Shown here one piece after another: positions 10,611 through 47,567 of a stretch of 64,000 nt of DNA (its first letter is position 1; every line of letters begins with the position of its first letter). The notes beneath the pieces were generated by a model. The model was given only the letters and a program-made list of their open reading frames with translations, made no database searches and was not told where the DNA came from. The position numbers and the translations under genes were made by a program. This DNA comes from a phage: the sequence record PZ452598.1, one strand, 5' to 3'.

Positions 10611-11405
10611 CTACGAATAGGCCCAAACATATCCATAAGCAATTTTGCTTTTTCCAGATATGCACTTTTTAATATTAGACATGCATCCTTTAACGGATAC
10701 AGCTGCGTCTTTAATTCTAGGAAATACTCGTAATAATTTTCCAGTAGTATCATATTGAAATACTGGCACATTTCTTTTCTGAGTTATCCCACGTTTAGAT
10801 TTAGACATTTTTTGTTTAGTTGCATTAGACATCCTAGAGGGCTTTCCTATGTTATCAGAATAATAATATTTCCATTGAAATCCTCCAGCGGTTTTCCTTT
10901 TACCATCTACACATTGTTTAATTGAAGTTGAACAGCTATATGACATATCTTCTGCAGCATCTGTAATACATCTATATTTGCGAATAAAATTTCCATTTAA
11001 ATCATATTGATAAATTGGTTTTCCAGCATTTCGTCTAGCGTTAGACATGTATTTTTTATTATCATCATCTTTCCAGAACTCTTTCATGCTTTCCGATATT
11101 GAAGAAGATACAGCTGTTTTAATCCATCCATACATTTTATTATTTAGTCTTGTTCCGTCAGAACTATAACACATCATACGAATAGCTAAAGCCAATTTAG
11201 GAAGTCTATAAATTTTAAATAATAATAAATGCGCGGTAAAATGTTCTTCTGGTGTCAAAAGAACTAAATTAGTTTTATCATCTGTACCACCCATACATCT
11301 AGGAATTATATGATGTGTTTCAGTATAGTATGTCAAAAGACTTTTATCATTGCCTCTGTTTAGTCCTTTTTCGATCAGTAAATTATATATGTTTAAATAA
11401 TTCAT
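10611..11405 (-). CDS. mobB: HNH-family putative homing endonuclease
   Basis: 264-aa ORF with HNH motif (THHIIPRCMGGTDDKTNLVLLTPEEHFTAH) and basic C-terminal repeats. Sits between a-gt and 55 like T4 mobB. Confidence 0.8.
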   Translation of the reverse strand: MNYLNIYNLLIEKGLNRGNDKSLLTYYTETHHIIPRCMGGTDDKTNLVLLTPEEHFTAHLLLFKIYRLPKLALAIRMMCYSSDGTRLNNKMYGWIKTAVSSSISESMKEFWKDDDNKKYMSNARRNAGKPIYQYDLNGNFIRKYRCITDAAEDMSYSCSTSIKQCVDGKRKTAGGFQWKYYYSDNIGKPSRMSNATKQKMSKSKRGITQKRNVPVFQYDTTGKLLRVFPRIKDAAVSVKGCMSNIKKCISGKSKIAYGYVWAYS

Positions 11406-15053: not shown

Positions 15054-15171
15054 TTACATTTACCTTTAATTGATTAACCAAGCATTGATAAGCACTAAAC
15101 TATACTGCGAATAAAATTCTGGACCAAAATGAAAAATCATATCATTTATAGTATCCATAATGTAATTCAAT

Positions 15172-15642
15172 TTAATCATGTTTCCACACCCCATCGGTAT
15201 TTGACCAAAGTCGCTGATTATCTGATCCTCGCCACAGCTTTTTGGTCGGAAGATTTTTCTCATACTTCCCATCAATAATAACATCAACATATTTAAGCAT
15301 TTCTAGTTGTTTAATATCTTCAAACTTATATCCTGTCCACAACCAGATATCTTTCTCCGGAAATCTTGCTTTAACCCAAGAAACTAAATTTGAAATCTCT
15401 TCTCGGTTCTGTGGATAAAGTGGGTCACCGCCGGTTAAGGTAAGGCCTTGGATATACGATTTGCTTAAATGGGACGCAAGTTCTTTAACGGTATTCATAG
15501 TGAATAACTGTCCGTTACGAGCATTCCAAGTACTACGATTATAACAACCTTCGCATTTATGCAAACATCCAGTGACGAAGAGAACGACCCTACATCCAGG
15601 GCCGTTAACGAAATCGCATGGATAAATTCTATCATAATTCAT
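15172..15642 (-). CDS. nrdG: anaerobic ribonucleotide reductase activase (radical SAM)
   Basis: Track ORF 184 aa; start trimmed to MNYDRIYPCDF (156 aa). Contains CLHKCEGC cluster motif. Sits 3' of nrdD/mobC. Confidence 0.9.
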   Translation of the reverse strand: MNYDRIYPCDFVNGPGCRVVLFVTGCLHKCEGCYNRSTWNARNGQLFTMNTVKELASHLSKSYIQGLTLTGGDPLYPQNREEISNLVSWVKARFPEKDIWLWTGYKFEDIKQLEMLKYVDVIIDGKYEKNLPTKKLWRGSDNQRLWSNTDGVWKHD

Positions 15643-16264
15643 CTTTATATTTCCAAGTATATCCCTTATGAATAGATTGAATTCCTTTGCAACATTTATA
15701 AACAGCAGAATGAAAAAATCCTGCATTTCTTATTTCAGTTGCTCCAGTTAGTTCTATTGTATTTCCGTCTGGTGAATAGCCAATAACCGTTTTGGTGTTA
15801 AAGCGATTTCTAGAACTATTTTTGATATGCTCTTTATGATTAGTAGACAAAGTTCTTCCTGTTAGCCCATCAGATATCCTTTTTCCAAAATCATCAGGAA
15901 GAGTTACTTTAGACCTAGCTATGCTCATTAGCTTCTTAGTTTTATCGCTTCTTTTTGCGCCACGCTGATTTTCAAATTTCTTAGCTTTTGCATACGCGTA
16001 TTGTGAAGAAGTAACTTTTCTATGCTTACTATTACTCATTATCCAATATGCATCATACATCTTTCCACCATATATTTTAGCCAATAAATGGTGAGCAGTA
16101 TAGTGGGCCTTATAAGTTAAAAATACTAAGTTGTCTAAATCATCTGAACCACCCATACTTCTTGGAATTATATGATGAAGTTCATACCCGGCTTTAGTTT
16201 GACGGGGCTTAGATGGGTGTTCAGCAGAATTAACTAGATTTGAATAGATTCTGTCATAATTCAT
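15632..16264 (-). CDS. mobC: HNH-family putative homing endonuclease inserted between nrdD and nrdG
   Basis: 210-aa ORF with HNH motif (HHIIPRSMGGSDDLDNLVFLTYKAHYTAHH). Its ATG overlaps the nrdD stop (ATGA) and its first 7 codons (MNYDRIY) repeat the nrdG start. Confidence 0.8.
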   Translation of the reverse strand: MNYDRIYSNLVNSAEHPSKPRQTKAGYELHHIIPRSMGGSDDLDNLVFLTYKAHYTAHHLLAKIYGGKMYDAYWIMSNSKHRKVTSSQYAYAKAKKFENQRGAKRSDKTKKLMSIARSKVTLPDDFGKRISDGLTGRTLSTNHKEHIKNSSRNRFNTKTVIGYSPDGNTIELTGATEIRNAGFFHSAVYKCCKGIQSIHKGYTWKYKDEL

Positions 16265-17540
16265 TGGTGCTTAACCCTATGCATGATTTCTTTATTTTTA
16301 CCGAGATTAAATCCGCGTTCGTTCGGATTTCCCAAATAACCACATGTTCTTCTTATGGTATTCATCTTTTTAGGATCAGTTTCTCCACAAATAGAACAAA
16401 CAAATCCGTTTTCAGTAGGAGTCATTTCATGGGTACTTCCACATGTAAAACATTTATCTACTGGCATATTAACACCAAAATAATCTAAATGCTGTGCAGC
16501 ATAATCCCACACGGCCTCAAGACCTTTTAAGTTATTTTTCATATCAGGAAGTTCAACATAAGAAATGTGACCACCTGTCGCAATGAAATGATATGGCGCT
16601 TCACGAGAAATCTTTTCAAACGGAGTAATATTTTCTTCTACTGAAACATGGAAACTGTTAGTGTACCAGCCTTTATCGGTAACATCTTTTACGCTTCCAT
16701 ATTTTTCTGTATCGAGTTTACAGAAGCGATAACACAGGTTTTCAGCAGGAGTCGAATATAAACTAAAAGCAAATCCGGTTCTTTCAGTCCACTGTTTAAG
16801 ATGAGCATTCATTTTAGTTAAAATTTCTCGTCCAATATCACGACCGACAAGAATATTCAATTCGTGAATACCAATGTATCCTAAAGACACTGAACTTCTA
16901 CCGTTTTTAAATAACTCAATTATGTCGTCATCAGGTTTAAGACGAACCCCGAATGCACCTTCTTGGTAAAGAATAGGAGCAACAGTAGCTTTAACTCCTT
17001 TTAAGGAACTAATTCTACACATCAAAGCTTCAAAACATAAATCCATTCGTTCATTAAATAGCTCAACAAATTTCTGTTCATTGAACTGTGTTCCAATATA
17101 AGAATCTAACGCGATGCGAGGAAGATTCAGTGTTACAACACCAAGATTATTGCGTCCATCAAGAATTTCATTGCCAGTCGAATCTTTCCATACGCTCAAG
17201 AAACTACGGCAACCCATCGGAGAAACAGGAACAGATGAACCAGTGATAGCTTTATTGTTCTTAGCTGAAATAATATCAGGATACATCCTTTTGCTTGCGC
17301 ACTCTAGAGCAAGCTGTTTAATATCATAGTTCGGATCGTCTTTATAAAGATTAACACCTTCTTCAACGAACATAACAAGCTTAGGGAAAATAGGAGTTAT
17401 CCCATCACGACCAAGACCTTTAATACGATTTTTCAGAATTGCTTTCTGAATCATTCGTTCAGTCCAGTCAGTTCCCGTACCAAATGTAATTGTTACAAAA
17501 GGAGTCTGTCCGTTTGAACTGAATAACGTGTTCACTTCAT
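16261..17540 (-). CDS. nrdD: anaerobic ribonucleoside-triphosphate reductase NrdD, exon 2
   Basis: C-terminal glycyl-radical motif RRTCGYLG and Zn-ribbon cysteines (CFTCGS...CSICGE). Exon 1 plus exon 2 give 1818 nt, i.e. 605 aa, after removing a 1033-nt intron. Confidence 0.88.
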
Positions 17541-17561
17541 CAATGTGTTCAGTAGAGTTCG

Positions 17562-18338
17562 CTACTTCTCTACCCGTTTATATGAAACAATGTAATTTGG
17601 ATAATTGTCATCTAAACACAAATCTTTAATACGACTTGGGTGGAGTTTTAAATCTTTAGCAGCATCCACAAATGATTTATAGATATTGTCATTTATTTTA
17701 ACATATTCTGGGACGGGATGAATTGTTATTTTTATATCTATAACATTTGGATGATTACTAACCTGTTCTTCAGAGCATTTAAGAAATTTTGCAGCTGATT
17801 TAAAACTTCTAAATTTATTTCCGGATTTTAAAGCTATAGAAACAGTCTTTTTAGCCGTTCTACTACCAATATTATTTTTAACATGAGCTTCACTTCTACT
17901 ATTATTTTTATAATGCTCAATCAATTTCTCTCGTATCTTATCTTTATGTTTTAAAGATAAGATTTTACCTTTATGGGCATTACTAAGTTTTTGCTTATGT
18001 TCTTCTGAATCCGGATATTTGTTAAATTTATATCCACCTATAGATTTATTAAGAATAAATTCGTTATTAAAATATTTCCTAATAAGCATTTCTTCATGTT
18101 TAAGGGCCGATTCATAAGAATCAAAAACTTGAAGAATTATCCACTTAGCTTTATAATCTTTAAGCTTTTCTTTAACAAGCTTAGATGACGAATTGTATTC
18201 TTTCCAATTTGTATCTTTACCATATATAGTTTTGAATTTTTTAAAACCTATATAAAAAGACTTATCAGGAAATCTTACCATATAGGTAAATGCTACAGAA
18301 TTGGCAATTTTTAAGCTTTTTCTTAATTTCCATTTCAT
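17562..18338 (-). CDS. I-TevII: intron-encoded homing endonuclease I-TevII (GIY-YIG-like)
   Basis: 258-aa ORF (MKWKLRKSLKIANSVAFTYMVRFPDKSFYIGFKK...) lying wholly inside the nrdD intron. Length matches T4 I-TevII. Confidence 0.85.
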   Translation of the reverse strand: MKWKLRKSLKIANSVAFTYMVRFPDKSFYIGFKKFKTIYGKDTNWKEYNSSSKLVKEKLKDYKAKWIILQVFDSYESALKHEEMLIRKYFNNEFILNKSIGGYKFNKYPDSEEHKQKLSNAHKGKILSLKHKDKIREKLIEHYKNNSRSEAHVKNNIGSRTAKKTVSIALKSGNKFRSFKSAAKFLKCSEEQVSNHPNVIDIKITIHPVPEYVKINDNIYKSFVDAAKDLKLHPSRIKDLCLDDNYPNYIVSYKRVEK

Positions 18339-18356
18339 CGTTTCACCTCGTATTCA

Positions 18357-18364
18357 TATTTATA
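18357..18364 (-). promoter_or_regulatory. late promoter core TATAAATA inside the intron, embedded in a hairpin upstream of I-TevII
   Basis: Minus strand reads CCUCGUAUAAAUAUGAAUACGAGGUGAAACGAUGAAAUGG. The hairpin arms flank the TATAAATA and its 3' arm covers the SD. Confidence 0.5.
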
Positions 18365-18573
18365 CGAGGATAAACAGCTGCATGTCACCATGCAGTTCAG
18401 ACTATATCTTCAACTCTTAGAGTTGTCTGCCGTTTCGGGTCGCTTGACCCTACTCCCTTACATTCATCAGGGATAGTCGTTGGGCATTTACAGCTACTGC
18501 TGATTTAGCAACGGATTGTCTCAGTGAGAGTTTCCCGTTTTAGGCAGATTTTACATGAGCTTGACTTACGTTA

Positions 18574-19111
18574 ACTCATAAGCTTGGAATGCATCGTATA
18601 CGTCTTTTTCTGTTTTAGATTGAGCATAATTCAACGCATCAGCGATTTGCCATTTTTCTGCATCCTCAATATGTTTTGCATAGGTGCGTTTAACATAAGG
18701 AGAAAGTACTTTATCTACATTCGCAAAAGTCGTTCCGCCGTATTGGTGAGAAGCAACTTGCGCAGTAATTTGTGCCATAATTGCAGTAGCAACTCCAATT
18801 GATTTAGGAGTTTCAATCTGCGCATTACCAAGCTTAAATCCGTTTTCAAGCATTCCTTTTAAATCTACTAAACAGCAATTAGTAAATGGAAGAGCAGGGG
18901 AATAATCAATATCATGCACGTGAATAATTCCGCTTTCATGCGCTTTCATAATAAAAGACGGGACCATATTTTTGGCAATGTGTTTAGACACAATACCAGC
19001 CATAAGGTCCCGTTGAGTTGGAAAAACACGAGAATCTTTATTAGCATTCTCGTTTAAAAGGTCTTTATTAGTTTTATGAATTAATCCTTCAATTTCTTTT
19101 TCAATTGTCAT
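18574..19111 (-). CDS. nrdD: anaerobic ribonucleoside-triphosphate reductase NrdD, exon 1
   Basis: N-terminal 179 codons (MTIEKEIEGLIHKTNKDLL...). The track ORF runs 8 nt into the intron before its stop. Confidence 0.88.
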
Positions 19112-19581
19112 TTTAAACTCTTTCTAAGCTGCTTCTTGAATGAAGCTATTAATTGTGTTTTGGTGTCAGATTCATTATATTCAAATCCTCTTTGAAGCAT
19201 CTCGGCCATCATTTCCTCTTTTCCTAAACGAGAAAATTCCTTTGATTTATCTCCAACAAAGTTAGGGTGAATATTATTTTGGGTGTAATCGGATTTTAAA
19301 TAAGTAAGTAAATTTTCTAACCATTCAAGATAATCAACACCTTGTCCCTTTAAGCCAGAACGATTAAATTTATGCTTCATTTGACCTTCTGCAGCATTGC
19401 ATAGATTACAAAGCAATCCACGCACCTTTCCTGCTTTTGGTCCATTTAATTCATGGTCATGGTCGAGGTGATTAGCTTGAACATCAGGATTTAGTTCTCG
19501 TTGGCAAATTAAGCATTTACCGTTTTGTGCATCATAAAATTTCTGTTTTTCTTCTTTGTATAATTTGCCAGTCAATAACAT
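19108..19581 (-). CDS. 49: endonuclease VII (Holliday junction resolvase)
   Basis: 157-aa ORF with zinc-binding CLICQ...CNLCN. Matches T4 gp49 in length and sequence. Confidence 0.95.
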   Translation of the reverse strand: MLLTGKLYKEEKQKFYDAQNGKCLICQRELNPDVQANHLDHDHELNGPKAGKVRGLLCNLCNAAEGQMKHKFNRSGLKGQGVDYLEWLENLLTYLKSDYTQNNIHPNFVGDKSKEFSRLGKEEMMAEMLQRGFEYNESDTKTQLIASFKKQLRKSLK

Positions 19582-19622
19582 AATAAACCCTTACCTTAAA
19601 TAGATAAGGGTATTTATTATTT

Positions 19623-20108
19623 TCAAGTATTGTAAAACATTTGATGCAATCGCTTATATTGCTGAATCATTCGGTCAGAAAAAGAAATTTGAGTTTCAAG
19701 CCATTCAATGTACTCTGCGGCAGCTTGCATTAAATTTCCTTCATAGCCATCGTTATTTTCTTGTGCAGCTAATTTAGCTAATGCGTATGAAATACGTTCA
19801 CCTTGAAAATCGGCTTTAGGCTTCTGAACAACTTGATTAGTTCGCTCTACAACTTCTTCAATTTCGCCATTTTCTACTGATTCAGTATTCCACAAACACC
19901 AATACGTAATTGGCTTATCGTAGATGTTAATAATCTTTCCATCAGAAAGTTCAATTTCAATAATTCCAGTGTCAGGCTCTATATCATCTTCACATTCTTT
20001 TACAAGTTCACGAACTTTAAAGACAGTACCTGCACTAAGTTCCGGCCAGTAATTACACAGCCCTGTATCAGCACGATTAATTCTAAACCATTTATCTACT
20101 GTAATCAT
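19623..20108 (-). CDS. pin: protease inhibitor Pin (inhibitor of host Lon protease)
   Basis: Track ORF 167 aa; likely start at MITVDKWFRINRADTG (161 aa). Position 3' of gene 49 as in T4. Confidence 0.65.
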   Translation of the reverse strand: MITVDKWFRINRADTGLCNYWPELSAGTVFKVRELVKECEDDIEPDTGIIEIELSDGKIINIYDKPITYWCLWNTESVENGEIEEVVERTNQVVQKPKADFQGERISYALAKLAAQENNDGYEGNLMQAAAEYIEWLETQISFSDRMIQQYKRLHQMFYNT

Positions 20109-41832: not shown

Positions 41833-42529
<697 letters not shown>

Positions 42530-42530
<1 letters not shown>

Positions 42531-43255
42531 TATAGTACCTTTAGTGTATTTTTAATTTTAGAAAAAAGTTCTTCAAGAGAACCATCGTTTGTAATTACTA
42601 AATCGCCATCACGAATTGGCAATCCAGCTTCTGTAATATGTGTATCATTGGATTTTTGACCAGGACGAACTACATGAATTACTGTAGCACCCATCGCCCT
42701 AGCCGCATCCATTTCATGATCTTGACGGGTATCAGGAACGATATAATAATCATAACCTGAGTTAAATTTATCAAGATAATCTAAAGCAAATAATTTTACC
42801 CAGTACATGCGGTCGAAGTTATTAACAATCAAATCCGTACCTAGGGCTTGCATCAGACGACGGACTGACCATTGATCTTCAATATTATTTATAACGTCAG
42901 TAATCTTATTAAATGCTACGAAATTAACTGATTCTTTTCCTTCGTCATCAAAAACAAACACACCTTTAATTGGGCTTTTACCATTAAGATAACAAAATGC
43001 TTGTTCCATAATCGTGATTACTTCTAATTTAGTCAGATTTAAATTAGTCTCACGATCATAGTCAATTCCTTCAAACTCTTTACGAGTTAAGCAAGGATAG
43101 TCAGTGTTTGCTGCAAATACTCCCCATGCATAAGCCAATGCATCCTTAATAGGACCAGCAAGTTGGTATTTAACTGCAGAATAATTGCTCATGATAAAAT
43201 CAGCAGTAGTATCTTTTCCACTACGCTTTACACCGCTTAAAAAGATTAGTTTCAT
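42530..43255 (-). CDS. 1: deoxynucleoside monophosphate kinase
   Basis: Track ORF 254 aa; start trimmed to MKLIFLSGVKRSGKDTT (241 aa) with P-loop. Matches T4 gp1. Confidence 0.9.
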
Positions 43256-43304
43256 GTGTTTCTCCTCAAATTTAATTAAGATTATAACACACAAAACTGA
43301 AGCA

Positions 43305-43835
43305 TTAAACTTCTGCTATAATTTTACCATCTTTTTCTACTTGAAAATAGGTGTAAGGAATTGTTGCAGTACATACTAAAGCCGGGTCTGAATCTTCCGT
43401 GTAGCTAAATTCTACTTCAGATAGGTCAGAAACCCAAGGCTTATAAAAATTTATTGACATCACGATTTCAGTTTTGCTATTATCTAAGATGTAAAGCGTA
43501 ATGTACTCAGGACCTGTTTTTTGGGCAGTATTTTCACCTGTAAGATAGTTGCTAGTTCCTAGCATCCATTCATACATTCCTATCCACGACTTAAGTTCTT
43601 CATCAACTATAAATCTCACAATGAGTGGATCATACTCAAATGTAACACCTGGACGTTGTGCTCGGCCCAGTCCAAACGGCCCAGTCACGGTATCAGTAAC
43701 AGGTATTCTAATTCCTGGAATAGGAACTGACTGAGCATTTAAAGTAAAAGCAGATGTAGTATTACTATGTGGTATTGATACTACAAAGTTAGTTGTATTT
43801 GCTTGGTTAAAAATTTGTTGCAGAGCTTGCGACAT
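43305..43835 (-). CDS. 3: tail completion / tail tube terminator protein gp3
   Basis: Track ORF 203 aa; start trimmed to MSQALQQIFNQ giving 176 aa, the T4 gp3 length. Position between genes 2 and 1. Confidence 0.75.
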   Translation of the reverse strand: MSQALQQIFNQANTTNFVVSIPHSNTTSAFTLNAQSVPIPGIRIPVTDTVTGPFGLGRAQRPGVTFEYDPLIVRFIVDEELKSWIGMYEWMLGTSNYLTGENTAQKTGPEYITLYILDNSKTEIVMSINFYKPWVSDLSEVEFSYTEDSDPALVCTATIPYTYFQVEKDGKIIAEV

Positions 43836-43941
43836 ATATTCCTCATAATGCTTTATAACTGTTGGTGGTATAATGGGTCTAAGTCCCTTCCATTCAATTC
43901 CATTTAGAACAAACAACAGAAAAGAATGGAAGATAATAGAA

Positions 43942-44766
43942 TTAGATATTTGACCAGACTTTGTTTGCAGAGAAACGTTTTCCTTTTGAAACGAACTGCT
44001 GAAGTGGCATCAACACAACGTTCGCCCAGTCTTTCGGGGCGATTTCAACAAGGCTACCCATAATATTACCAGGTATATATGCCTTAATCATTTGGTCTGC
44101 ACCCCTAAATCCTTTCACTTGACTCCAATCAATTTTTAATTTCGTTTTATTAGTAATAGTAGGTGTATTTGCATATTGCTTTAAAAGCTCTTCTAGGAAT
44201 TGCTGACGAGCTTTAGGTGGAATATAGTGCAAGTTTAATCCGTACATTAAATTATGCTTACCTAAACCAAGGTAAATTATCAAAGGAAATTTATCCCAGT
44301 AAGGAAGAGTTTCCTTGTGTTTAGCATCATAAGCAAAAGCATATATTCGTCCCGGCTGCGGGCGAACAACTTTATGTCCTTTTACTTGCTTAATAGTTTC
44401 AGCAAACCACTTTCTGGTTTTATTATTAATTGCTGCGCCTTCATTACGAATTTTATCACGCAATGTTTGTCTGAATGAATTTATCATAAGCAGTTGTCTT
44501 TCTTGCTTATTGAGTTTATTCATTGGTTTTGATTCAAGTTTTTGAATCTTTTCAGCCGTTTTAATTCCTGAAGCATATTTTGACATTGCTGAAGTAAACG
44601 TAGAGTATTTGATTCCTCTTTCTTCAGCAAATTGCTTTCCTGTCATTCCTTTTGCTTTGGCCTTTTTATATTCAAGACCTATCTGAATCCATTTCTTTTC
44701 GTTTAATGATTGCTTAACCTTTGGAACTTGGGGAGTGCTTTCATTAATTATTTGAAAAATAGCCAT
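43942..44766 (-). CDS. 2: DNA end-protector protein gp2
   Basis: 274-aa basic ORF. Length and position match T4 gp2. Confidence 0.88.
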
Positions 44767-45218
44767 TATGCCCCCTTAAAGCCAAGAGCTCGTAATCCAT
44801 CTTCTGTTAGAATTCTAAATTTTATTCCACGCTTTTCAGCTAAAGATTGTGCTGCTTTCCATTTGTCAGTGTTCACAGACCAGGTATAAATTTCATTCAT
44901 AAATCTTTTCTTCGCTGCGGTCGTTAGATGTGCTGGTTTAACTGGTGGTTGTGTTTCTTTTTTAGGTTTTATTTCAATAAAAAATTCTTGTCCAGAAGAA
45001 TCTTTCATCCAAATATCCATGAAGTATCTACGTTTTTTCCCTTCTGCATTACAAAAATAAGGAATTACTGCTGTTTCACTACCCCATGCAATAATTTCTG
45101 GATTTTTATCTAACCATTCAAAAAAGAATTTTTCCCAATTTGATCTATACGTAATTTTTTTAGGGTCACCTCTATACTTTGATATATTTTTAGGAACCCA
45201 TTTTCCAGAATATGCCAT
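44766..45218 (-). CDS. 4: head completion protein gp4
   Basis: 150-aa ORF. First gene of the minus-strand block, driven from a late promoter in the 4/53 gap. Confidence 0.88.
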
Positions 45219-45229
45219 TGGATTCTCCT

Positions 45230-45237
45230 TATAAATA
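45230..45237 (+). promoter_or_regulatory. late promoter core TATAAATA for gene 53
   Basis: Plus-strand tataaata about 28 nt upstream of the gene 53 ATG. Confidence 0.6.
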
Positions 45238-45244
45238 GATAATA

Positions 45245-45252
45245 TATTTATA
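45245..45252 (-). promoter_or_regulatory. late promoter core TATAAATA for gene 4 (divergent)
   Basis: Minus-strand TATAAATA about 27 nt upstream of the gene 4 ATG. Confidence 0.6.
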
Positions 45253-45265
45253 AACAGGAGGGCCC

Positions 45266-45856
45266 ATGCTCTTTACATTTTTTGATCCGATTGAATATGC
45301 GGCCAAAACGGTGAATAAAAACGCGCCGACTATTCCTATGACAGATATTTTTAGAAACTATAAAGACTATTTTAAACGCGCTCTTGCGGGATACCGCTTA
45401 CGTACTTATTATATTAAAGGTTCACCACGCCCGGAAGAATTAGCAAATGCTATATATGGAAATCCACAGCTGTATTGGGTTTTATTGATGTGTAATGATA
45501 ATTATGACCCGTATTATGGATGGATTACTTCGCAAGAAGCTGCTTATCAAGCATCTATACAAAAATACAAAAACGTAGGTGGAGACCAAATAGTATATCA
45601 TGTGAATGAGAACGGTGAAAAATTTTATAATTTAATATCATACGATGATAATCCATATGTTTGGTATGATAAAGGCGATAAAGCTAGAAAATATCCTCAA
45701 TATGAAGGAGCGCTTGCTGCGGTCGATACGTATGAAGCTGCTGTTCTTGAAAATGAAAAACTTCGTCAAATAAAAATAATAGCAAAATCAGACATCAATT
45801 CATTTATGAACGACCTTATACGTATAATGGAGAAATCTTATGGAAATGATAAGTAA
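45266..45856 (+). CDS. 53: baseplate wedge protein gp53
   Basis: 196-aa ORF. Length and position match T4 gp53. Confidence 0.9.
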   Translation: MLFTFFDPIEYAAKTVNKNAPTIPMTDIFRNYKDYFKRALAGYRLRTYYIKGSPRPEELANAIYGNPQLYWVLLMCNDNYDPYYGWITSQEAAYQASIQKYKNVGGDQIVYHVNENGEKFYNLISYDDNPYVWYDKGDKARKYPQYEGALAAVDTYEAAVLENEKLRQIKIIAKSDINSFMNDLIRIMEKSYGNDK

Positions 45857-47567
45857 TAACCTTAATTGGTTTGTCGGTGTTGTTGAAGATAGAATGGACC
45901 CATTAAAATTAGGTCGTGTTCGTGTTCGTGTGGTTGGTCTGCATCCACCTCAAAGAGCACAAGGTGATGTAATGGGTATTCCAACTGAAAAATTACCATG
46001 GATGTCAGTTATTCAACCTATAACTTCTGCAGCAATGTCTGGAATTGGAGGTTCTGTTACTGGACCAGTAGAAGGAACTAGAGTTTATGGTCATTTTTTA
46101 GACAAATGGAAAACTAATGGAATTGTCCTTGGCACGTATGGTGGAATAGTTCGCGAAAAACCGAATAGACTTGAAGGATTTTCTGACCCAACTGGGCAGT
46201 ATCCTAGACGTTTAGGAAATGATACTAACGTACTAAACCAAGGTGGAGAAGTAGGATATGATTCGTCTTCTAACGTTATCCAAGATAGTAACTTAGACAC
46301 CGCAATAAATCCCGATGATAGACCGCTATCAGAGATTCCAACCGATGATAATCCAAATATGTCAATGGCTGAAATGCTTCGCCGTGATGAAGGATTAAGA
46401 TTAAAAGTTTATTGGGATACCGAAGGATATCCGACAATTGGTATTGGTCATCTTATCATGAAGCAGCCAGTTCGTGATATGGCTCAAATTAATAAAGTTT
46501 TATCAAAACAAGTTGGTCGTGAAATTACAGGAAATCCAGGTTCTATTACAATGGAAGAGGCGACGACTTTATTTGAGCGTGATTTGGCTGATATGCAACG
46601 GGACATTAAATCACATTCTAAAGTAGGACCAGTCTGGCAAGCTGTCAACCGTTCTCGTCAAATGGCGTTAGAAAATATGGCATTTCAGATGGGTGTTGGT
46701 GGTGTAGCTAAATTTAACACAATGTTAACTGCTATGTTAGCAGGAGATTGGGAAAAAGCGTATAAAGCCGGTCGTGATTCATTGTGGTATCAACAAACAA
46801 AAGGCCGTGCATCCCGTGTTACCATGATTATTCTTACGGGGAATTTGGAATCATATGGTGTTGAAGTGAAAACCCCAGCTAGGTCTCTATCAGCAATGGC
46901 TGCTACTGTAGCTAAATCTTCTGACCCTGCTGACCCTCCTATTCCAAATGACTCGAGAATTTTATTCAAAGAACCAGTTTCTTCATATAAAGGTGAATAT
47001 CCTTATGTGCATACAATGGAAACTGAAAGCGGACATATTCAGGAATTTGATGATACCCCTGGGCAAGAACGATATAGATTAGTTCATCCAACTGGAACTT
47101 ATGAAGAAGTATCACCATCAGGAAGAAGAACAAGAAAAACTGTTGATAATTTGTATGATATAACCAATGCTGATGGTAATTTTTTGGTAGCCGGTGATAA
47201 AAAGACTAACGTCGGTGGTTCAGAAATTTATTATAACATGGATAATCGTTTACATCAAATCGATGGAAGCAATACAATATTTGTACGTGGAGACGAAACG
47301 AAAACTGTTGAAGGTAATGGAACTATCCTAGTTAAAGGTAATGTTACTATTATAGTTGAAGGTAATGCTGACATTACAGTTAAAGGAGATGCTACCACTT
47401 TAGTTGAAGGAAATCAAACTAACACAGTAAATGGAAATCTTTCTTGGAAAGTTGCCGGGACAGTTGATTGGGATGTCGGTGGTGATTGGACAGAAAAAAT
47501 GGCATCTATGAGTTCTATTTCATCTGGTCAATACACAATTGATGGATCGAGGATTGACATTGGCTAA
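45840..47567 (+). CDS. 5: baseplate central spike with lysozyme domain gp5
   Basis: 575 aa. Lysozyme domain (MAEMLRRDEGLRLKVYWDTEGYPTIGIGHLI) is paralogous to gene e. C-terminal VxGxxxxx beta-helix repeats. Confidence 0.97.
   Translation: MEMISNNLNWFVGVVEDRMDPLKLGRVRVRVVGLHPPQRAQGDVMGIPTEKLPWMSVIQPITSAAMSGIGGSVTGPVEGTRVYGHFLDKWKTNGIVLGTYGGIVREKPNRLEGFSDPTGQYPRRLGNDTNVLNQGGEVGYDSSSNVIQDSNLDTAINPDDRPLSEIPTDDNPNMSMAEMLRRDEGLRLKVYWDTEGYPTIGIGHLIMKQPVRDMAQINKVLSKQVGREITGNPGSITMEEATTLFERDLADMQRDIKSHSKVGPVWQAVNRSRQMALENMAFQMGVGGVAKFNTMLTAMLAGDWEKAYKAGRDSLWYQQTKGRASRVTMIILTGNLESYGVEVKTPARSLSAMAATVAKSSDPADPPIPNDSRILFKEPVSSYKGEYPYVHTMETESGHIQEFDDTPGQERYRLVHPTGTYEEVSPSGRRTRKTVDNLYDITNADGNFLVAGDKKTNVGGSEIYYNMDNRLHQIDGSNTIFVRGDETKTVEGNGTILVKGNVTIIVEGNADITVKGDATTLVEGNQTNTVNGNLSWKVAGTVDWDVGGDWTEKMASMSSISSGQYTIDGSRIDIG
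47290..47460 (+). repeat. tandem octapeptide-coding repeats (gp5 C-terminal beta-helix)
   Basis: Repeated ggtaatg/gttaaaggt/gttgaaggt units encoding VEGNGTIL VKGNVTII VEGNADIT VKGDATTL VEGNQTNT. Confidence 0.6.

Follow-up and report, generated by a model that had tools for sequence, protein, structure and literature searches.

The nrdD/nrdG junction of phage T4, where the free-standing HNH homing endonuclease gene (HEG) mobC lies, has its closest described counterparts in a handful of other phage HEG loci, and we compared it with these using a stretch of 64,000 nucleotides (nt) of phage DNA (sequence record PZ452598.1), the whole of which is called the window below and supplies the positions given. 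At SegG/gene 32 and MobE/nrdB, known for co-conversion and marker exclusion, the HEG and a tract of the flanking host gene are inherited together, sporadically, with embedded signals for the downstream gene (PMC2988022), a likeness that mobC shares. SegH (Sandegren et al. 2005, cited in PMC2988022), present in LZ2, U5, e11/2 and others, is like mobC a free-standing HEG at the very same site, overlapping both neighbours and accompanied by a recoded host-gene end. In Aeh1, where mobE splits nrdA (Friedrich et al. 2007), and in the MobA/gene 60 cassette (bioRxiv 10.1101/2022.08.31.505936), HNH HEG cassettes likewise sit inside a coding region and extra sequence keeps the host gene working. The T4 mobC of the Kutter/Miller annotation and of a review of T4 mobile DNA (PMC2988022) is identical in gene and position to the one considered here, but the borrowed nrdG start and the imported nrdG tract that we report are not described in that review. 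In the accessible literature we found no description of a borrowed start, a duplication or a chimeric nrdG; the key paper, Sandegren et al. (2005), lay outside this comparison, and part of what follows may be published.

The window is phage T4: its stretch 15100-19700 is 100% identical to positions 42361-46961 of Enterobacteria phage T4T (HM137666), whose annotation places gp49, nrdD (two exons), I-TevII, mobC and nrdG at the matching positions, all on the minus strand. The nrdD intron, I-TevII and mobC, each in its place, are long-established textbook T4 biology (PMC2988022), to which the anatomy of the junction is a modest addition. We consider it very probable that the 49-nrdD-mobC-nrdG region of T4 carries two selfish elements, and that mobC is a cassette with a replacement 5' part of nrdG, grafted onto the resident nrdG start. 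Set beside the described systems, mobC is a mirror image of SegH, which has a replacement nrdD 3' end, changes nrdG only in its first ~30 nt and belongs to a different nuclease family. Unlike SegG/gene 32 and MobE/nrdB, the tract at mobC passed between genera and the resulting protein is a chimera, and MobC cleavage is only putative. Whereas Aeh1 mobE and MobA/gene 60 involve a split protein or translational bypass, at T4 mobC a second 5' end would rebuild nrdG and the HEG would take the original start. The features concerned are these:

15632..16264, minus strand: mobC, free-standing HNH homing endonuclease gene (210 amino acids, aa; Pfam HNH)
15172..15642, minus strand: nrdG, radical-SAM activase (156 aa; Pfam Fer4_12 and Radical_SAM)
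16244..16264, minus strand: upstream 21-mer copy, the resident nrdG translation start, now mobC codons 1-7; ATGA-coupled to nrdD and the probable site of the left recombination joint
15622..15642, minus strand: downstream 21-mer copy, the working nrdG start, which would have arrived with the cassette; overlaps the last 11 nt of mobC
15343..16243, minus strand: imported block of ~900 bp, comprising the mobC body and the first ~300 nt of nrdG, delimited by divergence from eight mobC-less relatives
15313..15345, minus strand: probable zone of the right crossover (nrdG nt 298-330), in an island of sequence that is conserved in both genera, Tequatrovirus and Jiaodavirus-like

The mobC ATG (16264-16262) overlaps the nrdD TGA (16263-16261) to form a 4-bp ATGA (16261-16264), and no earlier start is possible because an in-frame TAA lies 9 nt upstream. 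At the other end nrdG, with its ATG at 15642, begins 11 nt ahead of the mobC stop, the overlap being the last 11 nt of mobC. In sequence, mobC thus overlaps nrdD by 4 bp and nrdG by 11 bp, as against the 24-bp overlap with the upstream open reading frame (ORF), with a ribosome-binding site 27 nt upstream, that is quoted in PMC2988022. The initial annotation had recognized mobC as an HNH gene that lies between nrdD and nrdG and overlaps the nrdD stop as ATGA, and this is borne out by the coordinates, by the T4T annotation and by Pfam (MobC against HNH, PF01844: 27.6 bits, cut-off 21.4; motif ELHHIIPRSMGG...N...H, common to its homologues). It had also noticed that the first seven mobC codons, MNYDRIY, are a near-copy of the nrdG start. 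The two stretches, ATGAATTATGACAGAATCTAT (16264-16244) and ATGAATTATGATAGAATTTAT (15642-15622), are identical at 19 of 21 nt and lie 622 nt apart; with three mismatches or fewer allowed, the mobC stretch matches nothing else in the 64-kb window than the nrdG copy, where shuffles predict 0.02 matches and none of 100 shuffles reached 2, so that the resemblance is non-random by this measure.

The empty site is preserved in mobC-less, intron-less relatives, namely wV7 and nine IMG/VR Tequatrovirus loci (L010-L017, L032). In all of them nrdD and nrdG are directly ATGA-overlapped, as the initial annotation had suggested checking, and nrdG starts with the same sequence, ATGAATTATGATAGA(A/T)TTTAT. Because nrdG of these relatives starts at this point, ATGA-coupled, the upstream 21-mer of T4 sits exactly at the ancestral nrdG start. 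Exon 2 of nrdD is of Tequatrovirus type right up to the mobC ATG, with 1-3 differences per 60 nt. The idea that Ile6 of T4 NrdG (Phe6 in wV7 and LZ2) was copied from mobC was rejected, as the mobC-less L010, L032, L022 and L024 also read MNYDRIY.

Beyond the start codon, nrdG itself changes character along its length. In a sliding-window comparison of T4, minus intron and mobC, with eight mobC-less Tequatroviruses, which are nearly identical to one another throughout, nrdG nt 60-300 shows 12-33 differences per 60 nt, followed by an abrupt return to 0-2. Identity to wV7 (Tequatrovirus) and to the Klebsiella phage K65 runs as follows:

nrdG nt 1-120: 83% to wV7, 80% to K65
nrdG nt 121-300: 55% to wV7, 96.7% to K65
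nrdG nt 301-471: 99.4% to wV7, 70.8% to K65

Over its first 297 nt, T4 nrdG is matched best, among mobC-less database entries, by Klebsiella phages (88-90%), while T2, RB27 and RB32 match this tract partially, at 72-84%. At the protein level, residues ~36-100 of T4 NrdG are of K65 type and residues 101-156 of Tequatrovirus type. Judged by these identities, T4 nrdG is an inter-genus chimera, cassette-specific at nt 1-120, Jiaodavirus-like at nt 121-300 and of Tequatrovirus type at nt 301-471. The right crossover is bounded on one side by the last difference from Tequatrovirus, at nt 297, and on the other by the positions at which T4 first departs from K65 beyond the tract, nt 301 and 330. This shared boundary was considered as a guide to the MobC cut site and rejected, since all Tequatrovirus mobC-bearing isolates have one and the same right boundary; for the same reason they would descend from one transfer and offer no independent tract ends. 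Within the otherwise near-identical block, nrdG nt 1-60 (window 15583-15642; compared with L047, L048, L051-L054, L038 and L040) falls into two sharply different subtypes among HEG-linked alleles, ~10 of 60 nt apart: PCDF in T4, G2540-3, HP3, Pinarejo, Wolf and Boboto, and PCCF in SHFML-11, BCPSen, ELT1, BEU50, BCPEco, 215Ecol, Shark and Roth77.

The distribution of mobC points to recent lateral spread. Of the ~900 records that hold the locus, 32, from Tequatrovirus and from Jiaodavirus-like phages, have a mobC body with an identity of 99.3% or more. Three mobC-bearing phages are from Klebsiella, Wolf_ER13, Boboto (classified as Jiaodavirus jd18) and Shark_ER15, and in the 3' third of nrdG these differ from T4 at 7-12 positions per 30 nt (~70% identity). 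Such sporadic, near-identical copies in divergent genomes, together with a co-transferred nrdG tract of ~300 nt, form a HEG-type pattern, and their presence in two genera is the first sequence-based evidence that we found for the mobility of mobC. All genomic context of mobC comes from GenBank isolates; exact-match scans for the mobC 5' body in IMG/VR and JGI metagenomes gave 0 matches.

The head of mobC differs between the two genera. In the Klebsiella phages it reads ATGAATTTCGACAGAATCTAT followed by TCAAATC (MNFDRIY, then SNLV), and 20 of these first 21 nt are shared with the nrdG head of mobC-less K65, ATGAATTTCGACAGAATCTAC followed by CCTTCTGAC (MNFDRIY, then PSDF, with CCTTC after the heptad). 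In T4 the head is ATGAATTATGACAGAATCTAT, again followed by TCAAATC, with TAT at codon 3, as in Tequatrovirus nrdG. Codon 3 of mobC is therefore TAT in Tequatrovirus and TTC in Jiaodavirus-like phages, each as in the lineage's own nrdG, and because the head follows the resident nrdG of each host lineage we take it to derive from nrdG. Downstream, the nrdG start of every mobC-bearing genome is the one that belongs to the cassette, MNYDRIYPC[D/C]F. Jiaodavirus-like phages have a small spacer ORF between nrdD and nrdG; since T4 has no counterpart of this spacer, the left crossover into the T4 lineage would fall within the ~21-bp nrdG-start remnant. The spacer ORF, of 77-79 aa, overlaps both nrdD and nrdG (K65_evo1, L039, 2796-3029; L045-L047, 2775-3014), and its C-terminus changes from ..NLPF (stop) to ..NLFKSS (stop) when mobC is present.

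The initial annotation had interpreted the repeat as the footprint of an insertion that duplicated the nrdG initiation region. In this scenario mobC would have inserted in T4 itself and the event, a staggered cut with fill-in or similar, would have duplicated 21 bp of the phage's own nrdG start. Two 19/21 copies do flank a 622-bp insert exactly at the empty-site nrdG start, the first seven mobC codons do correspond to an nrdG start, and the siting of the upstream copy supports the core of the claim; that copy would be, partly or wholly, the resident nrdG start, fused in frame to mobC by a crossover inside the 21-mer. The downstream copy, however, belongs to the imported block, being continuous with ~300 nt of foreign nrdG (nt 121-300 at 55% to Tequatrovirus versus 97% to K65), and Jiaodavirus-like phages have this cassette too, preceded there by the nrdG start of their own lineage. 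A target-site duplication draws both copies from the recipient's single target, whereas here the downstream copy is contiguous with foreign nrdG and the upstream copy tracks the resident lineage. Furthermore, MobC (MNYDRIYSNLV) aligns to its HNH family from residue 1, with no N-terminal extension; a plain duplication adding seven codons is excluded because the heptad is in register with the family N-terminus and not added to it. Duplication within T4 is thus very unlikely, and the earlier interpretation, right in spirit, is refined rather than discarded.

That same register could also mean that MNYDRIY is simply the native N-terminus of MobC and that nothing in mobC comes from nrdG. We compiled N-termini from 12 homologues obtained by word-index search and from 160 representatives obtained by an exhaustive search of a representative library with 13,277 MobC homologues, and the consensus in both is M-N-Y-[Q/K/E]-[K/R]-I-Y-[N/D]-x-L-I. 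MNY opens 84 of the 160 representatives, position 5 is K as often as R, positions 6-7 are almost always I-Y, and one representative (P0064) starts MNYDRIY; the presumed T4 mobB (window 10611-11405), at a locus unrelated to nrdG, starts MNYLNIYNLLI. NrdG, in turn, natively starts MN(Y/F)DR(I/F)YP in many lineages, so that the protein-level "copy" of the nrdG start in MobC is mostly coincidence between two unrelated families; on this view 19 of 21 nt would also be unremarkable, given identical peptides in an AT-rich genome. As a complete explanation, however, coincidence meets the Jiaodavirus-like junction, in which codon 3 is TTC (F) exactly where that lineage's nrdG has TTC, in a head identical to it at 20 of 21 nt; F at position 3 was found in 0 of 94 family N-termini matching a pattern that allowed Y or F there, and D at position 4 in 2 of the 94. 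In addition, the mobC ATG stands precisely at the empty-site nrdG ATG with the ATGA overlap preserved, and at the same site of Klebsiella phage Roth77 another HNH gene has unambiguously captured 13 nrdG codons. A purely HNH-native heptad was rejected as sole explanation by the TTC/F3 junction, and we assign coincidence a very low probability. Gene conversion between the two short repeats, 622 bp apart, could have made or could maintain the similarity however mobC arrived. T4 recombines avidly, and the PCDF/PCCF subtypes of nrdG nt 1-60 show exchange in a short stretch, but the two 21-mer copies keep fixed differences (GAC/GAT, ATC/ATT or ATA) in 14 of the 14 mobC-bearing genomes examined, the Jiaodavirus-like copies differ at codon 3 (TTC versus TAT) and are not homogenised, and the trend so far is that the two copies do not co-vary. 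Conversion appears extremely improbable.

A cassette grafted onto the resident nrdG start remains our preferred reading, although several points weigh against it or against its extensions. The activity of MobC is given as "ND" and its target as "unknown" (PMC2988022), and mobC may have spread by ordinary recombination. The lineage-tracking codon 3 is seen in two lineages only. Codons 4-7 of mobC (GACAGAATCTAT), invariant in all mobC copies, also occur in other nrdG alleles (12/12 in L018-L023, 10/12 in the segH-bearing e11/2) and, D4 excepted, fit the HNH family consensus as well, so that the left crossover is placed no more closely than within the 21-mer. The first 120 nt of the cassette's nrdG match neither lineage well, which implies at least one further host. 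Finally, a transfer from Jiaodavirus to Tequatrovirus, the direction that we infer, rests on similarity of the flanking tract in a limited genome set.

As to mechanism, we put forward that the cassette, composed of the mobC body and a replacement nrdG 5' part, resided a few codons inside the nrdG of a Jiaodavirus-like phage of Klebsiella, and would have reached the T4 lineage by recombination, with the right crossover in the conserved island at nrdG nt ~298-330 and the left one inside the ~21-bp nrdG-start remnant that heads mobC. In its new place mobC would take its translation start from the resident nrdG, at the site that is coupled by ATGA to the end of nrdD, and nrdG itself would re-initiate at the second copy of its start, inside the 3' end of mobC. 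The borrowed nrdG codons would replace native HNH codons in register, a fusion that may be harmless because the HNH N-terminus (M-N-Y-x-K/R-I-Y) happens to resemble that of NrdG (M-N-Y/F-D-R-I/F-Y), and this resemblance probably supplied the microhomology for the joint. If so, the locus illustrates how a selfish gene can enter an ATGA-coupled gene pair with neither neighbour broken.

A wider reading can be offered tentatively, and we hold it slightly on the doubtful side. MobC would be an active, or recently active, homing endonuclease with its target in the nrdG 5' part; the cassette would have jumped from Jiaodavirus-like phages to Tequatrovirus, leaving T4 NrdG an inter-genus chimera; and free-standing HEGs would gain entry to operons with tight translational coupling by taking over the start of the gene that follows, fusing in frame to its first codons and bringing a replacement 5' end, a route eased in the HNH family by the chance likeness of the N-termini. 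The site would then be a ~60-bp hotspot used by three HNH genes (T4 MobC, the homologue in phage leE and the HNH gene of Roth77) and by the GIY-YIG gene SegH. The alleles compared suggest that MobC probably targets the nrdG 5' part, where HEG-linked alleles differ most and form two subtypes, and the PCDF and PCCF subtypes may represent target-site variation. The candidate cleavage site of MobC is thereby narrowed to the nrdG 5' region, and the two subtypes among mobC-bearing phages would, were this reading true, reflect an arms race over the target. The chimeric nrdG also carries a caution for biochemistry, as the T4 NrdG of biochemical work is a recombinant of two lineages.

The arrangement in T4 has parallels in other phages. 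In Roth77 (L040, 2175-3011) a different HNH gene, of 278 aa, precedes nrdG; it opens with 13 codons of the resident nrdG start (MNFDRIYPSDFVN) and closes with ...WKYINEL (stop), and its end shares 11 nt with a new nrdG start, the same overlap that T4 has. On its junction sequence, Roth77 shows start capture independently of T4 and more clearly. Cronobacter phage leE (L005, 3001-3642), a Pseudotevenvirus, has a MobC homologue, 45% identical and starting MNYHKIY, directly upstream of nrdG; an ATGA overlap lies at the stop of the homologue, the upstream gene is not nrdD, and the nrdG start is recoded to MNYIRIY (vs the RB16-type MNFDRIY). The GIY-YIG gene segH occupies the same nrdD/nrdG site in LZ2, e11/2, F13076 and GRNsp7. 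In segH phages (e11/2, L044, 839-1730; LZ2, L004) the last ~70 nt of nrdD are recoded, with 26 differences from wV7 in the last 60 nt, and the region of the new nrdD stop contains the ATG of segH (ATGCATAGG). The segH-type nrdD 3' end (...MKEMVKRVKHA, stop) is also found in SHFML-11 (L048, 2920-3000), BCPSen_003 (L038, 2820-2900) and others, including L051-L054 (L054 being ELT1). These hybrid-junction phages have a 12-nt non-coding remnant of the T4-type nrdD end, GGTTAAACACCA, followed by the mobC ATG, and the joint falls at a 10-nt stretch, CATGCATAGG, common to both allele types; in SHFML-11, BCPSen_003 and L051-L054 mobC stands without ATGA coupling to nrdD. Such sequences point to repeated exchange at short homologies in a ~100-bp hotspot.

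Some further signals were noted in mobC and its family. A near-consensus T4 late-promoter motif, TATAAATG, lies within the mobC 3' part (window 15693-15700, minus strand), ~55 nt upstream of the nrdG ATG, and is preceded by a terminator-like hairpin (15705-15724, minus strand). A sigma-70 promoter scan of the region, which does not cover T4 middle or late promoters, returned 13 sites vs 19.3 in shuffles. The ORF at window 10611-11405 (minus strand), which is presumably T4 mobB by position and family, encodes a 264-aa HNH protein, starts MNYLNIYNLLIEKG and contains ...HHIIPRCMGG.

The remaining features of the region belong to nrdD, its intron and the upstream neighbour:

19108..19581, minus strand: gene 49 (endonuclease VII), upstream neighbour (Pfam Endonuclease_7 and Endonuc-dimeris; T4T annotation)
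18574..19111, minus strand: nrdD exon 1, 538 nt (Pfam NRDD profile positions 1-141; junction set by ungapped collinearity with intron-less G2540-3)
17541..18573, minus strand: group I intron of nrdD (sunY intron), 1033 nt, with the catalytic core in the 5' ~200 nt and an ORF in the 3' part
17562..18338, minus strand: I-TevII, intron-encoded GIY-YIG homing endonuclease, 258 aa, identical to the annotated T4T I-TevII
18346..18369, minus strand: predicted hairpin CCTCGTAT/ATACGAGG, read from sequence, just upstream of the I-TevII ATG
16261..17540, minus strand: nrdD exon 2, 1280 nt with the stop codon counted (Pfam Gly_radical, and NRDD at profile positions 146-562)

The gene 49 stop overlaps the nrdD start. 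NrdD and NrdG contain the domains of a class III (anaerobic) ribonucleotide reductase (PF13597, 2.7e-122; PF01228, 9.4e-26; PF13353, 2e-50; PF04055, 1.1e-7). The initial annotation had called the operon essential, which is wrong, as the anaerobic reductase of T4 is known to be dispensable in ordinary aerobic culture. Every feature that it described is present at the coordinates assigned, but the interval that it had given, 15632-19111, leaves most of nrdG (15172-15642) outside.

Its description of nrdD as split by a 1033-nt group I intron at 17541-18573 agrees with the T4T annotation, with Rfam and with the restored reading frame. The group I intron family (RF00028) matches at 18378-18609 over its full model (1-253), scoring 105.3 bits (gathering score 50; E = 3e-27); the 5' exon closes with ...GAGT, its last base being the U that precedes the 5' splice site, and the intron closes with ...ATTG, its last base being G. 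Excising exactly 17541-18573 yields an nrdD ORF of 1818 nt (605 aa), reading ...AYEYEVNTLFSS... (...AYEYEVNT...) across the junction, and this ORF aligns gap-free to the intron-less nrdD of phage G2540-3; it is on this ungapped collinearity that the exon junction is placed at 18574/17540. Self-splicing of the T4 nrdD intron was reportedly shown by Young and co-workers in 1994. Twenty-five phage records carry the intron with an identity of 99% or more, comprising T4 stocks and PST, fPS-2, Manna, G8, RPN226, U5 and EC128. The intron does not differ from the known T4 nrdD (sunY) intron with I-TevII, having the same sequence, length (1033 nt), insertion site and 258-aa GIY-YIG ORF, and the identical T4 sequence self-splices (PMC2988022).

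I-TevII occupies intron nt 236-1012, ~75% of the intron, a reasonable fit to the 3' two-thirds first proposed. Its Pfam scores fall below threshold (SegE_GIY-YIG, 21.6 bits with a cut-off of 25; NUMOD1, 22.5 with a cut-off of 22.8), and its identity therefore rests on the 100% match to the annotated gene. By established T4 biology, the sequence here being identical, I-TevII cuts intron-less nrdD alleles and the intron spreads by double-strand-break repair. The hairpin at 18346-18369 encloses a late-promoter consensus, TATAAATA (18364-18357), and a GAGG ribosome-binding site, which it is predicted to sequester; the arrangement agrees with the regulation of I-TevII set out in the T4 mobile-DNA review (PMC2988022).

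Between T4 (17480-17540 and 18574-18600) and intron-less G2540-3 (L002), synonymous differences cluster just downstream of the intron site (GAGTATGAAGTGAACACGTTATTC vs GAATATGAAGTAAATACTCTCTTT), as would be expected from exon co-conversion or from variation of the I-TevII target site. At the same site ELT1 (L054, 651-1660) has an nrdD intron variant of ~85% identity that contains an I-TevII-like ORF, and 215Ecol030PP (L051, 1217-1635) has an ORF-deleted intron of ~420 nt, in which T4 pre-mRNA positions ~792-1508 are missing.

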